Source: a virus (Duplodnaviria; Heunggongvirae; Uroviricota; Caudoviricetes). Taken from it: 64,000 nt of DNA. Below the pieces are notes generated by a model. It was not told the DNA's origin and searched no databases. It saw only the letters and a program-made list of their open reading frames with translations. Below, in pieces: positions 27,199-52,027 of the stretch; within the stretch, counting starts at the first letter, position 1; each line of letters opens with the position of its first letter. The stretch is from IMG/VR virus record IMGVR_UViG_3300031760_000015, positions 43,641 to 107,640 of that record, one strand, 5' to 3'. The position numbers and the translations under genes were made by a program.

Positions 27199-27376
27199 TA
27201 GACCTGTAACAGCAATATAAAATTGGACTGTAAATCCCGAAAGATTGTGGGTTCGACTCCCACTCAGCCCCACCATTTATATGGGGCTGTGGCGCAACGG
27301 TTGACGCACGTGAAAAATTGGGTCTAGCATGTGCTGTAACGGGGAGAGGAGCACATTAATATCCCCTTTCCACCAT
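27199..27376 (+). ncRNA. E1: YACAGCAAU-motif element containing a circularly permuted tRNA-like core (T-arm + 3' acceptor CAGCCCC-A-CCA, 7-nt spacer, 5' acceptor GGGGCTG + D-arm) followed by two long hairpins
   Basis: motif TGTAACAGCAAT 27206-27216; T-arm 27247-27263; acceptor halves 27265-27271 and 27283-27289 perfectly complementary; CTGTAAC repeated at 27204 and 27344. Confidence 0.5.
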
Positions 27377-28004: not shown

Positions 28005-28114
28005 TAAGACAGTTACAGCAAATTCAATTAGATTATTAGTATAGTGGATAATACATTAAACTTCCAATTTAAAAATCGTCAGTTCGACTCTGACATAATC
28101 GAAAAAACTGTCTT
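28005..28114 (+). ncRNA. E2: long-range 9-bp stem (AAGACAGTT/AACTGTCTT) + ACAGCAAATT motif enclosing an intact tRNA-Gly(TCC)
   Basis: stem strands 28005-28013 and 28106-28114; motif 28014-28023. Confidence 0.55.
28030..28102 (+). tRNA. tRNA-Gly(TCC)
   Basis: D-arm GTAT..ATAC, anticodon arm TTAAA-CTTCCAA-TTTAA, T-arm GTCAGTTCGACTCTGAC; 1-72 A/G mismatch. Confidence 0.55.
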
Positions 28115-28122
28115 GTTATTAT

Positions 28123-28529: not shown

Positions 28530-28536
28530 CTTATAG

Positions 28537-28655
28537 AGTCGCTCACAGCAATTGTTCTTATAGAACATATGGGTTCAAATCCCATAATACGCACAGCGTA
28601 TTTAGCCAAATGGTCAAGGCAGATGTCTAACAAACATCCTTCTATTAAAGCGACT
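28537..28655 (+). ncRNA. E3: stem-framed (AGTCGCT/AGCGACT) CACAGCAAT element enclosing a circularly permuted tRNA (T-arm + 3' acceptor AATACGC-ACA-GCGTATT 5' acceptor + D-arm + anticodon arm with loop CTAACAA)
   Basis: T-arm ATGGGTTCAAATCCCAT 28568-28584; acceptor halves 28585-28591 and 28595-28601 perfectly complementary; no T-arm follows the 5' half. Confidence 0.55.
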
Positions 28656-28668
28656 TGTTATATTTTAT

Positions 28669-30639: not shown

Positions 30640-30726
30640 GCGTCGGTATGCCTAGCAGCGAGAGCACTTGGCTGTAGACCAAGTACGTTAGAAACACCGT
30701 GGGTGCAACTCCTACCCGGCGCACCA
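30640..30726 (+). tRNA. tRNA-Tyr(GTA), type II
   Basis: anticodon arm CTTGG-CTGTAGA-CCAAG, long variable arm, CCA. Confidence 0.65.
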
Positions 30727-36072: not shown

Positions 36073-36984
36073 ATGAAAAAAATTAAAAAGAATGGTTTAT
36101 CTTTTGGAATTTTTGGTGCTATTGCCGCAATTCTTGTTGTTCTATTATTTATAGACTTGACTACGCCACAATATGGATTTTTTGCAAAAGTTAATGCAGG
36201 TTATGTGGGTATTAGAGAATATTTTGGCAAAGTGCCTGATGAACCGTTACAACCAGGTTTTCATGTGACTCGTTTTTTTGAGCATGTTCATCCTGTCGAT
36301 GTTAGAACTCAACGCAACACTTATAAAATGGAAGCATTTAGTTCCGATATTCAGCAAGTAATTGTTACAGTTGCAGTAAATAGTAATATTTCATCTGAAT
36401 CTGCGGGAACCTTATATAAAACTGTTGGTATGAATTATCTTACTACTCTAATGGAACCTCGTCTATTAGAAAATGTAAAAGTTGTAATTAGTCAATATAC
36501 CGCAGAATCTTTAATTGCTCAACGAGAAACTTTATCTAAACAAGTTTTAGAATTAATGCAACAAGATTTAAAGTCTTATGGAATTGTTATTAGTAATATT
36601 TCTGTAGAAAATATAGATTTTACAGATGCTTTTGAATCAAGTGTAGAAGCTAAACAAGTTGCTACTCAAGAAAAACAAAGAGCTAAAACCATTCAAGAAC
36701 AGCAAACTATGGAAGCTCAACAAGCAGCAGAGCGTCAAAAGATTGCTGCGCAAGCAGAAGCAGAAGTAGCTAAAACAAAAGCAGATGCAGAAGCATATGT
36801 TGTTCGCGCAAAGGCAGAAGCAGAGGCAGAAGCTAATAAGAAAATCAATGAATCTTTAACTCGCGATTTAATTGATTATACACAAGTTCAAACTTGGGAT
36901 GGTAAGTTACCTACTTTTGTAGGCGGAGATTCTAGTATTCCTATTTTTAATATTGAAACAGAAACTACGTCAACTCAGGAATAA
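36073..36984 (+). CDS. SPFH/band-7 (prohibitin/HflK-like) membrane protein
   Basis: N-terminal TM, SPFH core, C-terminal QA/EA-rich coiled coil. Confidence 0.6.
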   Translation: MKKIKKNGLSFGIFGAIAAILVVLLFIDLTTPQYGFFAKVNAGYVGIREYFGKVPDEPLQPGFHVTRFFEHVHPVDVRTQRNTYKMEAFSSDIQQVIVTVAVNSNISSESAGTLYKTVGMNYLTTLMEPRLLENVKVVISQYTAESLIAQRETLSKQVLELMQQDLKSYGIVISNISVENIDFTDAFESSVEAKQVATQEKQRAKTIQEQQTMEAQQAAERQKIAAQAEAEVAKTKADAEAYVVRAKAEAEAEANKKINESLTRDLIDYTQVQTWDGKLPTFVGGDSSIPIFNIETETTSTQE

Positions 36985-46395: not shown

Positions 46396-46596
46396 ATGGA
46401 TTTAATTGAACAACTTGAAACCTTACGAATTTCTGATAATGATTTTTTTGGACAAAGTTATGAAAAACAATGCGCTTATGCTCGCGCGAATGCGATGTTA
46501 GACGATTGCCTAGAAATCGTTTGGAAATGGTTATTAGATAATAATGCACTAGATAAAGTAGAATACCTTAGAAAAAGAGTTCATTTTAATACTTGA
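46396..46596 (+). CDS. hypothetical protein
   Basis: ORF track. Confidence 0.45.
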   Translation: MDLIEQLETLRISDNDFFGQSYEKQCAYARANAMLDDCLEIVWKWLLDNNALDKVEYLRKRVHFNT

Positions 46597-46621
46597 CTTA
46601 TAATAAAAAATTTGTTATAAT
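46593..46621 (+). promoter_or_regulatory. sigma-A-type promoter TTGACT-N17-TATAAT
   Basis: -35 46593-46598, -10 46616-46621. Confidence 0.5.
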
Positions 46622-46623
46622 AA

Positions 46624-46688
46624 ATATGTAAGAACGACGATTACAGCAATTAATAAGTAAACATAGCTATTGGAGTTATTTCTACTGT
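46624..46688 (+). ncRNA. E4a: stem (ACGACG/CGTCGT) + ATTACAGCAATT motif hairpin element, no tRNA inside
   Basis: motif 46632-46643 directly 3' of the stem 5' strand. Confidence 0.45.
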
Positions 46689-46702
46689 TCGTCGTGCTGA
46701 TT

Positions 46703-46777
46703 GAAATTAAAGGCGGATACAGCAATTTTATATTTTAAGTAATAATCTGTTAAATTATCGCACTTAATAATAACCGC
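46703..46777 (+). ncRNA. E4b: stem (AGGCGG/CCGCCT) + ATACAGCAATT motif hairpin element
   Basis: motif 46709-46719. Confidence 0.45.
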
Positions 46778-46786
46778 CTAGAAATT

Positions 46787-47384: not shown

Positions 47385-47954
47385 GTGATTATTATGAAAA
47401 AATGGGAAAGGTTTTCTGATGAAGAGTTGCAAGAAATTGCTTATAGAAGTTCTTGCTTAGGAGACTACGCTAAAAATTTAGGCTATTCTATAAAAGGTAC
47501 TAGTGGTAATAGTGCTCGTTCTTCTGTAAAAGCAATGATTGAACTTAAACAAATAAATGTAATGCATTTTAAAGGTTATAAAGATAAATCTACACAATTT
47601 AATTATAAACATGTTAATGAAAATTATAATGTTAGTAATTTATTTATAGAAAATAGCTTCGCAGAAAGAAAACTTATTAGACGTTATTTATTAGCATATA
47701 ATTTAATTCCATATAAATGTGCTTTTTGTGGTAATGAAGGGGAATGGCGAGGAAAGCAGATTAGTTTAGAATTAGACCATATTAATGGCAAGCATAATGA
47801 TAATAGATTAGAAAATCTTCGTTGGCTTTGTCCAAATTGTCACGCTACTACTCCTACATACTGCGGTAAAAATATAACTTATCAATGTGAACAAGCCCTG
47901 TTAGCTCAGTCGGTAGAGCATTCGGCTGGTCAGATAGAAACAAGTCCTAGTTGA
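47385..47954 (+). CDS. HNH homing endonuclease
   Basis: CAFCG ... DHINGKHNDNRLENLRWLCPNCH; 3' end overlaps tRNA-Thr exon 1. Confidence 0.7.
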   Translation: MIIMKKWERFSDEELQEIAYRSSCLGDYAKNLGYSIKGTSGNSARSSVKAMIELKQINVMHFKGYKDKSTQFNYKHVNENYNVSNLFIENSFAERKLIRRYLLAYNLIPYKCAFCGNEGEWRGKQISLELDHINGKHNDNRLENLRWLCPNCHATTPTYCGKNITYQCEQALLAQSVEHSAGQIETSPS

Positions 47955-48020
47955 GTGCAAGACTCAAATCTGGCACCATTAACCGAAGTGTCGGCAGTTC
48001 AAGTCTGTCACAGGGCGCCA
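47895..48020 (+). tRNA. tRNA-Thr(GGT) interrupted by a 50-nt insert in the anticodon loop (insert 47931-47980, between nt 36 and 37)
   Basis: acceptor GCCCTGT/ACAGGGC, D-arm GCTCAGTCGGTAGAGC, anticodon stem TTCGG/CCGAA, T-arm GGCAGTTCAAGTCTGTC, CCA; insert folds into CAGAT/ATCTG and TTGAGT/ACTCAA helices. Confidence 0.55.
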
Positions 48021-48648: not shown

Positions 48649-48723
48649 GACCCTATGGTGTAGTTGGTCTAACATATTAGCCTGTCACGCTAAAGATCAC
48701 GGGTTCAAATCCCGTTAGGGTCG
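48649..48723 (+). tRNA. tRNA-Asp(GTC)
   Basis: acceptor GACCCTA/TAGGGTC, anticodon loop CTGTCAC, T-arm ACGGGTTCAAATCCCGT. Confidence 0.65.
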
Positions 48724-48726
48724 CTT

Positions 48727-48850
48727 TTAGACTCAGCCAGCATATTTTTTACTTACGCATTGAGGAGCGAGTAGCATTGGTTCGAATCCAATTCTTCCCA
48801 CTATATGGGAAGATAGTGTAATGGTAGCACGCTTAATAGTATGAGTCTAG
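48727..48850 (+). ncRNA. E7: stem-framed (TAGACTCA/TGAGTCTA) element with degenerate motif (GCCAGCATAT) enclosing a circularly permuted tRNA-like core (T-arm + 3' acceptor TCTTCCC ... 5' acceptor GGGAAGA + D-arm)
   Basis: T-arm ATTGGTTCGAATCCAAT; acceptor halves perfectly complementary; D-arm GTGTAATGGTAGCAC. Confidence 0.45.
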
Positions 48851-48856
48851 TTTTAT

Positions 48857-48933
<77 letters not shown>

Positions 48934-48934
48934 T

Positions 48935-48963
48935 TTGACATCTTTTCAAAATTCTGTTATAAT
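48935..48963 (+). promoter_or_regulatory. sigma-A-type promoter TTGACA-N17-TATAAT
   Basis: -35 48935-48940, -10 48958-48963. Confidence 0.5.
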
Positions 48964-49221: not shown

Positions 49222-49313
49222 TAAGCCTTTACAGCAATTTTTAAATGGTTAAATTATTTTGTTTAAAGTACAGAGTAAGAGAAGGTTCGAGCCCTTCATA
49301 ATTAAAAGGCTTA
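49222..49313 (+). ncRNA. E5: 9-bp stem (TAAGCCTTT/AAAGGCTTA) + ACAGCAATTT motif element containing a T-arm-like hairpin (GAAGGTTCGAGCCCTTC)
   Basis: motif 49231-49240; T-arm-like 49281-49297. Confidence 0.45.
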
Positions 49314-49864: not shown

Positions 49865-49866
49865 TT

Positions 49867-49986
49867 TATGCGGTCACAGCAATTTTAGATATTAATCTAA
49901 GTGTCATCGGTTCGATTCCGATTATTCCAGCCATTTAATTTGGAGTGTAGCTCAATTGGTAGAGCATTAGACTTTATAACCGCATA
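49867..49986 (+). ncRNA. E6: 8-bp stem (TATGCGGT/ACCGCATA) + CACAGCAATT motif enclosing a circularly permuted tRNA (3' anticodon-stem strand TCTAA, variable loop, T-arm, 3' acceptor TATTCCA-G-CCA, spacer, 5' acceptor TGGAGTG, D-arm, 5' anticodon-stem strand TTAGA)
   Basis: T-arm ATCGGTTCGATTCCGAT 49906-49922; encoded CCA 49931-49933; D-arm GCTCAATTGGTAGAGC 49950-49965; no T-arm downstream of the 5' half. Confidence 0.6.
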
Positions 49987-50002
49987 GTACAAATATTTAT
50001 AG

Positions 50003-50061: not shown

Positions 50062-50075
50062 TGTAATTAAACTTT

Positions 50076-50176
50076 AAGTCCGTTACAGCAATTTTATATA
50101 AAAATTTAGAATTAATTTAATATGTTGGTTTATTAAAAATTTTGAAAATTTATTGATACGGACTTGATTTTTTTAT
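50076..50176 (+). ncRNA. E8: 8-bp stem (AAGTCCGT/ACGGACTT) + TACAGCAATT motif element with AT-rich loop, followed by a T-run (terminator-like)
   Basis: motif 50084-50093; T-run 50168-50176. Confidence 0.45.
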
Positions 50177-51930: not shown

Positions 51931-52010
51931 TTTAGACATTCACAGCAATAATAAGCAATGCCATTATTTAAATTTAAATCAAAAGATTATTGCAACTTTT
52001 GTAGTGTCTA
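51931..52010 (+). ncRNA. E9: stem (TAGACA/TGTCTA) + TTCACAGCAATAAT motif element with AT-rich loop
   Basis: motif 51939-51952. Confidence 0.45.
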
Positions 52011-52027
52011 GTTTATAGGAGAAAAAT

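Follow-up and report, generated by a model that had tools for sequence, protein, structure and literature searches.

YrlA RNAs (RF02553; Chen et al., 2014, PMC4201824) are encoded beside TROVE Ro60 genes and consist of a GNCGAA(N)G box near the 5' end, followed by a variable (V) region, a T-arm, a closed acceptor-like stem and a D-arm. The box, GNCGAA(N0-1)G, is the proposed contact with Ro60/Rsr; the RNA carries tRNA modifications, and in M. smegmatis it is cleaved by RNase P and acquires CCA (PMC4201824). The canonical Ro60 of Thermus phage phiLo binds Yrl1 and Yrl2, which are encoded beside it and in which a stem flanks a loop with a CGAA box, and it recruits host polynucleotide phosphorylase (PMC12135203). 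Here we describe E7, a small RNA element in a 64,000-nt stretch of a Caudoviricetes phage (IMG/VR record IMGVR_UViG_3300031760_000015, positions 43,641 to 107,640; this whole stretch is called the window, and all positions refer to it). E7-type RNAs are YrlA-like in design and are not YrlA members, and E7 is probably the partner of a divergent Ro60-like protein encoded in the same window.

The window is an AT-rich phage segment (about 33% GC) in which at least 26 tRNA genes were found, every one of them on the plus strand. E7 lies between tRNA-Asp (48649-48724) and tRNA-Pro (48857-48933), where a preliminary description made from the sequence had placed it, and all features named there were found again, the closing-stem coordinates being shifted by about one base (Table 1). 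The order of the parts is circularly permuted: the T-arm and the 3' acceptor strand lead through a short loop into the 5' acceptor strand and the D-arm, and an outer stem, P1, closes the whole. The two acceptor strands are complementary at 7/7 positions, and the sequence has the hallmark bases of a tRNA, namely U8, the GG of the D-loop and the UUCGA of the T-loop. The same D-arm, GTGTAATGGTAGCAC, recurs in members of the family from Enterococcus phage VRE9_1 and from Salmonella phage UAB_Phi87, and a member from Bacillus phage PJN02 has a nearly identical one.

P1 is a continuous 8-bp helix without 3-nt bulges. It is separated from a second, 3-bp helix, P2, by an asymmetric internal loop that carries the conserved box. 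P1 had been thought to substitute for the anticodon stem; P1 itself is not in that position, but the chain does close there, through P2. The 23 nt between box and P2 differ in length and sequence from their counterparts in other members, and E7 has no canonical anticodon loop at this place. The motif had rightly been called degenerate, since the E7 box reads CAGCA-T-AT, a one-base insertion variant of the (A/C)CAGCAAT or ACAGCGAT of the orthologues. The acceptor loop also differs: orthologues have N-CCA-UAU, whereas E7 has ACUAUAU, CCA being changed to CUA.

Relatives of the open reading frame (ORF) upstream of E7 are encoded in 62 IMG/VR contigs, five of which carry an E7 orthologue (78-81% identical). 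A structure of five helices (P1, P2, T, acceptor and D; 27 pairs) was tested. In a MAFFT alignment of E7 and the five orthologues 100% of the cells were paired, with five compensatory pairs (three in the acceptor stem, two in P2), which 0/500 shuffles equalled, and pairing fell to 33-44% when the partners were slid. The compensatory pairs of P2 reflect CGG/CCG in the orthologues; in the group of locus L009 this helix is CCG/CGG. A covariance model built from these six sequences (R1) was used to search 531 kb and gave 98 matches at E up to 1, all on the plus strand. Among them were E6, E1 and E3 (33.2 to 42 bits), the three elements of the window with which a common fold had been suspected.

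Alignment of 42 family members to the model gave 96.1% paired cells and compensatory change in 25 of the 27 pairs, and the covariation score was 0.754 compared to 0.187 in shuffled and at most 0.115 in slid controls. All pairs of P1 (8/8, 96.7% of cells paired) and of the acceptor stem (7/7) covary, as do 4/5 pairs of the fully paired T-arm. G-U or U-G cells outnumber A-C or C-A cells by 58 to 12, which shows that the structure is read from the plus strand as RNA. The common fold was also seen with a second model, R2, which was built from 31 members, none of them from the window or the E7 orthologue loci. R2 detected E7 over its full length (model positions 1-135) with 101.3 bits (E = 4e-18) as the top match in 202 kb; 38 of its 39 matches were on the plus strand, and E6, E1 and E3 scored 62.5 to 85 bits.

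The box is located 1-5 nt inside P1 in all family members, is present in the R2 consensus and is conserved in about 35 elements from eight phage lineages. A G-U-U-U tail after P1 and the ends of P1 (UAGAC...GUCUA-G) are likewise conserved. E7 kept P2 by compensatory change (CUU/GAG compared to CCG/CGG) despite its lost CCA and variant box, which argues for continued selection on the fold. Taken together, these data confirm that E7 is a real, conserved small RNA gene with a covariation-supported fold.

Standard annotation does not reveal the element. ARAGORN made no call at 48725-48856, the Rfam tRNA model (RF00005) matched only the T-arm (12.9 bits, curated score 29), and Rfam 15 contained no family for E7 or its relatives at gathering or permissive thresholds. 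The exact E7 string was not found in IMG/VR, and among INPHARED phage genomes no close relative of the window was found, only its tRNAs giving matches. The z-score for single-sequence folding of E7 is only -2.55; the support therefore comes from comparison and not from folding energy. With the orthologues as input, RNAalifold suggested that the box pairs with UUGC and that another helix competes with the T-arm; both were dropped, as neither covaries or is general.

The likeness to YrlA, suggested in the preliminary description, holds for the design. Both RNAs have a terminal 5'/3' stem and, shortly after its 5' strand, a conserved box, as well as the same order of V region, T-arm, closed acceptor-like stem-loop and D-arm, and the same U8, D-loop GG and T-loop UUCGA. 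Both are encoded on the strand of a Ro60-type ring protein gene, often in several copies and together with simpler YrlB-like partners, and phage versions of YrlA are known. Membership in YrlA does not hold. E7 has GCCAGCAUAU and its family (U)ACAGCAAU where YrlA has the GNCGAA box, with no CGAA at that position. RF02553 gave no match on 48700-48870 at E up to 10, and a relative in Mycobacterium phage BigCheese reached 21.4 bits (E = 5, core only) compared to a gathering score of 69. The candidate partner gene encodes a DUF2828/DUF7788/VWA_2 and not a TROVE protein, and it is on the same strand but 8.6 kb from E7, beyond the criterion of about 4 kb used for YrlA; in other phages relatives of E7 lie 20-350 nt from the DUF2828 gene. 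Many relatives also have a complete anticodon-like hairpin and an encoded N-CCA, and elements are scattered through tRNA arrays. The phiLo RNAs Yrl1 and Yrl2 are similar in being phage-encoded, in having a 5'-3' stem that flanks an internal loop with a short box, and in occurring in several copies by a Ro60-type gene. They differ in their CGAA box, in that no tRNA-like body has been described for them, and in their partner, a canonical TROVE Ro60 that matches the DUF2828 protein at the level of the fold only.

The product of this gene (38483-40111) matches phrog_850, "RNA-binding protein", in PHROGs (E = 6e-122), and a PDB sequence search with it found nothing. It was modelled with AlphaFold2 (predicted local distance difference test 82, predicted template modelling score 0.78). 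The top 12 PDB fold matches of the model were all Ro60/TROVE structures (E = 6e-9 to 8e-6, template modelling score about 0.5), including Xenopus, human and Thermus phage phiLo Ro60, followed by isolated vWA domains; identity to canonical Ro60 of the phiLo type is 15-16%. Because of these best fold matches, the predicted structure identifies the protein as a divergent HEAT-ring-plus-vWA protein of the Ro60 type. At least 697 sequenced phage records contain genes for relatives, among them those of Listeria A511 and P100, Felix O1-type phages, Staphylococcus 6ec, cluster L mycobacteriophages and Campylobacter CP81, and some mycobacteriophage records label them "Ro-like RNA binding protein".

The DUF2828 loci of seven phages with different host genera (Bacillus, Listeria, Mycobacterium, Salmonella, Enterococcus, Staphylococcus and Campylobacter) were then compared. 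Elements with P1 and a CAGCAA box were present on the strand of the DUF2828 gene in 7/7 lineages, in 6/7 of them within 350 nt (Table 1). Beside the gene R1 scored 55 bits in BigCheese (E = 2e-9), 47 in VRE9_1, 40 and 30 in PJN02 and 33 in UAB_Phi87, and the permuted design recurs in phages of four bacterial phyla. In the reverse test, IMG/VR was scanned with AAAGACNNNTACAGCAA, and a DUF2828 gene was found within the few kb of stored sequence at 9/23 loci with a closing-stem match compared to 3/97 loci with chance-like matches (Fisher p = 1.2e-5). Two control tRNA arrays without a DUF2828 gene, those of Klebsiella phage KaAlpha (21 tRNAs) and Arthrobacter phage Racecar (18 tRNAs), contained no element with P1 and box, and model matches there were only partial and located at tRNA-tRNA junctions. 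A Band-7 protein and an RNA ligase, encoded near the DUF2828 gene in the window, were considered as co-varying partners and rejected: both are absent from the seven other loci, so that only the DUF2828 protein is common to all. The family thus has a terminal 5'/3' stem, an adjacent conserved box and a variable effector module, and it is consistently associated with a Ro60-type ring protein, in 8/8 lineages including the window; in both respects it is a Y RNA in the broad functional sense.

The transcriptional context was analyzed in the window. There is no terminator between the upstream ORF, tRNA-Asp, E7 and tRNA-Pro, and a sigma-70 promoter (12/12) at 48935 starts the next unit. Near-perfect sigma-70 promoters (TTGACx, 17-nt spacer, TATAAT) are present on the plus strand at 38377-38405, 46593-46622 and 48935-48963, preceding the Ro60-like gene, a pair of minimal elements (46634-46779) and the ORF after tRNA-Pro, respectively. 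These promoter sequences suggest that the region is transcribed by the host polymerase.

We propose, with a probability of about 0.65, that E7 is a Y-RNA-type small non-coding RNA, a circularly permuted tRNA mimic that is the partner of the divergent phage Ro60-like protein. E7 would be co-transcribed with the neighbouring ORF, tRNA-Asp and tRNA-Pro as one precursor and freed by processing of the flanking tRNAs. The covariation shows that it folds into a tRNA-like body of T-arm, D-arm and loop-closed acceptor stem, with the chain entering and leaving at the anticodon-stem position through P2, the internal loop and P1. The CAGCAAU box, P1 and the G-UUU tail may be the docking site for the DUF2828/vWA ring protein, as their co-occurrence suggests, in parallel to the stem and CGAA box by which YrlA/Yrl RNAs bind canonical Ro60. 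By analogy with YrlA, the tRNA-like body would be the effector, presenting a tRNA-shaped surface to RNase P, CCA-adding and modification enzymes, exonucleases or ligases. The ribonucleoprotein could serve in tRNA or RNA quality control or repair, or act against RNA-targeting host defences. Where the acceptor loop is N-CCA-UAU, as in the orthologues and some paralogues, an RNase P cut and 3' trimming could give a two-piece, CCA-ended tRNA mimic. Two-piece transfer-messenger RNA (tmRNA) consists of two pieces after cleavage in the acceptor loop, and the same is conceivable for the E7 family.

Several points weigh against this proposal. The link between protein and RNA is inferred from co-localisation, the seven comparison phages were chosen from a tblastn list and not drawn at random, and 14/23 loci of the reverse test have no DUF2828 gene, the stored stretches being just 1.5-14 kb long. 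In the window about 3.5 kb separate the DUF2828 gene from its nearest family member, E7 lies 8.6 kb downstream of the gene, and the elements do not adjoin it as they do in the other phages. The fitting of two alignments (A4 and A6) to the model biases their pair counts toward the structure, and the E-values of the models are rough; pairing among the 42 members is inflated by this fit, yet both the slid controls and the MAFFT result, which is independent of it, point the same way. Predictions leave the box unpaired in most members, although it can pair with a downstream UUGC in some. With its degenerate box and lost CCA, E7 could also be a decaying copy.

A wider reading, which we put forward as speculation and consider doubtful, is that the CAGCAAU RNAs are the missing partners of a second phage-wide Ro60-like clade, the DUF2828 proteins. 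RNase P would cut their tRNA-shaped members in the acceptor loop, and trimming back to the encoded CCA would give two-piece and possibly chargeable look-alikes that are tethered to the ring protein and in some cases have the anticodon loop of Tyr, Asn, Thr or Arg. The ribonucleoprotein would be a decoy, sensor or repair platform against tRNA-cutting host nucleases and thus a new anti-defence, and the drum RNA (see below) would be a relative in the same superfamily.

A decoy function could also be located in the tRNA-like body instead of in tethering. E7 would then be a sacrificial tRNA mimic, a two-piece look-alike that acts as a sink or sensor for host nucleases directed at tRNAs, whether or not the Ro-like protein takes part; this reading overlaps with the proposed one, and we regard it as unlikely. 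It draws on the canonical anticodon loops (CU-NNN-AA) of many members, which read Tyr GUA (E1), Asn GUU (including BigCheese), Thr UGU and Arg UCU (window elements 27199-27326 and 28536-28656; loci L025, L026, L009, L014, L018, L033, L060 and L064), and on the N-CCA that follows the 3' acceptor strand in 10/42 members. Neighbouring genes of the RNA-repair type (RNA ligase and Band-7 in the window, RtcB and RNA ligase in A511) fit as well, as does the report that the Ro60-like gp130 of a Felixounavirus counters the Ppl defence (PMC11482910). E7, however, has neither an anticodon-like loop nor CCA, and minimal members keep P1 and box without any tRNA-like body. No nuclease target is known, and Ppl has been proposed to be a DNA-degrading system (PMC11482910).

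It is less likely still that the elements are processing or stability modules of polycistronic tRNA precursors, acting as RNase recognition sites or folding insulators and unrelated to the DUF2828 protein. They are interleaved with tRNAs in the window, PJN02, VRE9_1 and UAB_Phi87, one P1 with box wraps a normal tRNA-Gly, and the conserved ends of P1 would suit such a role. The BigCheese elements, in contrast, adjoin the DUF2828 gene although no tRNA is closer than 6 kb, those of 6ec are about 1.4 kb from the nearest tRNA, and the control tRNA arrays do without elements; a simple cleavage site would moreover leave the conserved, covarying tRNA-like body unexplained.

The permuted order recalls permuted tRNA genes of the Cyanidioschyzon merolae type and permuted two-piece tmRNA (RF04321), in which the 3' half also precedes the 5' half across a short linker; an origin by tandem duplication is likely. 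A true permuted tRNA gene, whose product works in translation after cleavage or ligation, is nevertheless very improbable. In its favour, E7 orthologues encode a discriminator base and CCA, relatives have intact anticodon arms, an RNA ligase gene is nearby, and canonical tRNA-Tyr, Asn, Val and His are missing from the tRNAs called in the window. But E7 has no anticodon arm, bulge-helix-bulge, tag reading frame or pseudoknots; instead, its break point is closed by P2 and the conserved P1 with box, a module that known permuted genes do not have and that is conserved even in members without a tRNA body. E1-type relatives, in addition, combine a Tyr-like arm with a short variable loop, unlike bacterial tRNA-Tyr, which is class II.

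The same anatomy and covariation disfavour debris of some kind (two tRNA fragments, a decayed tandem-tRNA junction or a DNA-level inverted repeat), which is hardly credible even though tandem duplication is the likely evolutionary origin, the CCA and box of E7 are degenerate and tandem-tRNA junctions give partial model matches: true junctions reach model positions of about 50-107 only, whereas E7 matches over the full length and has no flanking tRNA halves, P1 and P2 covary, and the design recurs across phyla. Two independent tRNA fragments or pseudogenes, named at the outset as the refuting alternative, are rejected because the acceptor strands covary with each other, and a DNA-level inverted repeat, miniature inverted-repeat transposable element or attachment site by the asymmetry of G-U and A-C cells and the single-strand orientation.

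Table 1. Parts of E7, related elements of the window, the proposed partner gene, and elements at DUF2828 loci of seven other phages.
Feature	Position	Strand	Remarks
E7, whole element	48728-48849	+	8-bp closing stem enclosing permuted tRNA-like body
P1, 5' strand TAGACTCA	48728-48735	+	8/8 pairs with TGAGTCTA at 48842-48849
Box GCCAGCATAT	48736-48745	+	just inside P1
Degenerate conserved box CAGCATAT	48738-48745	+	family consensus UACAGCAAU; orthologues CAGCAAT or CAGCGAT
Variable region, box to P2, 23 nt	48746-48768	+	counterpart of V hairpin or anticodon-like hairpin of other members
P2, 5' strand GAG	48769-48771	+	pairs with CUU at 48832-48834; anticodon-stem position
Variable loop UAGC, 4 nt	48772-48775	+	after P2 5' strand
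T-arm ATTGG/TTCGAAT/CCAAT	48776-48792	+	partial Rfam tRNA match, model positions 44-63
3' acceptor strand TCTTCCC	48793-48799	+	7/7 with 5' strand
Acceptor loop ACTATAT	48800-48806	+	
5' acceptor strand GGGAAGA	48807-48813	+	
Junction TA (tRNA positions 8-9)	48814-48815	+	
D-arm GTGT/AATGGTA/GCAC	48816-48830	+	followed by G
P2, 3' strand CTT	48832-48834	+	followed by AATAGTA
P1, 3' strand TGAGTCTA, with G-UUUU tail (GTTTT)	48842-48849, tail to 48854	+	
E1	27199-27326	+	P1, AACAGCAAT, Tyr-like anticodon hairpin CUGUAAA, T-arm, acceptor with ACCA-containing loop, D-arm; R1 40.6, R2 62.8 bits
P1 and ACAGCAAA around normal-order tRNA-Gly(UCC) (28029-28103)	28005-28115	+	R2 35.2 bits
E3	28536-28656	+	permuted body and extra anticodon-like hairpin CUAACAA after D-arm; R1 33.2, R2 62.5 bits
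Minimal element, P1 and UUACAGCAAU, no tRNA-like body	46634-46695	+	pattern scan only
Minimal element	46711-46779	+	R2 36.8 bits, E = 1e-4
T-arm-only paralogue	49222-49313	+	R2 33.1 bits
E6	49866-49987	+	permuted body, GCCA after 3' acceptor strand; R1 42, R2 85 bits
Minimal element, box UUUCAGCAAA	50002-50062	+	pattern scan only
Minimal element	50074-50167	+	R2 20.4 bits, E = 0.32, weak
Minimal element, directly after tRNA-Gln	51932-52011	+	R2 30.3 bits
542-aa Ro60-like protein, proposed partner	38483-40111	+	Pfam DUF2828, DUF7788 and VWA_2
Bacillus PJN02, six elements	in 2.5 kb upstream of DUF2828 gene		two with permuted tRNA-like bodies
Mycobacterium BigCheese, three elements in tandem	41-297 nt downstream		no tRNA within 6 kb
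Listeria A511, three elements	35-300 nt upstream		
Salmonella UAB_Phi87 (Felix O1 type), three elements	340-1140 nt downstream		
Enterococcus VRE9_1, four elements	one 45 nt upstream		
Staphylococcus 6ec, three elements in tandem	20-230 nt downstream		sole nearby tRNA about 1.4 kb from elements
Campylobacter CP81, two elements	22-172 nt upstream		

The window contains about 11 copies of the family between 27.2 and 52.0 kb, all on the plus strand. Four have full permuted bodies (E1, E3, E6 and E7), one is built around a tRNA-Gly of normal order, one has a T-arm only, and five are minimal. They share (U/C)ACAGCAAU just inside the 5' strand of the closing stem, and the closing stems themselves differ in sequence (TAGACC, AGTCGCT, ACGACGA, AGGCGG, AAGCCTTT, ATGCGGT, AAGTCCGT and others). 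A pattern scan of the window gave 19 matches on the plus and 9 on the minus strand, compared to 1-7 in shuffled sequences; the true copies are concentrated between the genes of the tRNA region that surrounds the Ro60-like gene. Since the stem and ACAGCAAA box enclose the whole tRNA-Gly(UCC), the module can carry an unpermuted tRNA as cargo. The "tRNA-Phe(aaa)" called by ARAGORN at 49235-49305 (plus strand) is a miscall inside the T-arm-only paralogue. In other phages, short "hypothetical protein" ORFs annotated over RNA elements (L066 14355-14612, Phi87_08; L069 5843-5980, ORF140) are probably spurious calls.

Several further observations were made in the region. An SPFH/Band-7 protein (36073-36984, plus strand) and an RNA ligase (PF09414; 41746-42396, plus strand) flank the Ro60-like gene, forming an RNA-repair-type neighbourhood, and in Listeria A511 the corresponding place beside the DUF2828 gene is taken by RtcB and an RNA ligase. 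At 47895-48017 (plus strand) Rfam detects a tRNA with 51.8 bits over 123 nt that was missed by ARAGORN and has a structured insert of about 49 nt in the anticodon. Removal of GUCAG...GGCACCA would restore CUGUUAA and thus a tRNA-Asn(GUU). The insert, much smaller than a group I intron would be, adjoins an HNH endonuclease ORF (47385-47891) and recurs in the related contig L059. A further tRNA at 30640-30723 (plus strand; 38.2 bits) was found by Rfam and not reported by ARAGORN. The segment 42400-43660 (plus strand) is 1.26 kb long, contains no ORFs and has a GC content above that of its surroundings; it includes tRNA-Met (42714-42787) and a full-score drum RNA, and the rest may be further structured RNA.

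This drum RNA (RF02958; 43192-43303, 70.8 bits) resembles the family in some respects. In the 3' domain of drum, as in some minimal members, a short closing stem is followed just within it by an (A)AC-NN-CAA box, UGCGGAUA is present, and a run rich in A precedes the 3' strand, as judged by eye from three sequences (window 43252-43300, L064 7463-7512 and L066 13883-13936), and both RNAs occur in phage tRNA regions. Drum reads ACCACAA and not ACAGCAA, however, and has an extra 5' hairpin. Membership of the elements in drum was rejected, as the Rfam drum model matched neither E7 nor the minimal elements. A kinship between the orphan drum motif and the CAGCAA-box family is possible.

A description of the CAGCAAU-box family was found neither in Rfam 15 nor in the searchable literature, two key reviews lying outside that coverage so that an earlier description is possible. 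The tRNA-like element of Felix O1-type phages is conserved in 234 phage records, where it is unannotated or labelled "hypothetical protein". In Felixounavirus Bas63 the Ro60-like gp130, which counters the Ppl defence, is encoded directly upstream of tRNA genes, and the authors speculated that some of these neighbouring tRNA genes might be Y RNAs, none of which were identified (PMC11482910, 2024 preprint). This described position of gp130 agrees with that of the DUF2828 gene in UAB_Phi87, and the two are likened here by position. The CAGCAAU family supplies concrete candidate RNAs, with a box that can be mutated, for the Ro60-like proteins of model and applied phages. If the proposal is true, the Ro60/Y-RNA partnership would extend to a second clade of proteins. 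The family also shows that bacterial viruses mimic tRNA by gene permutation, and it makes the functions of both partners directly testable.

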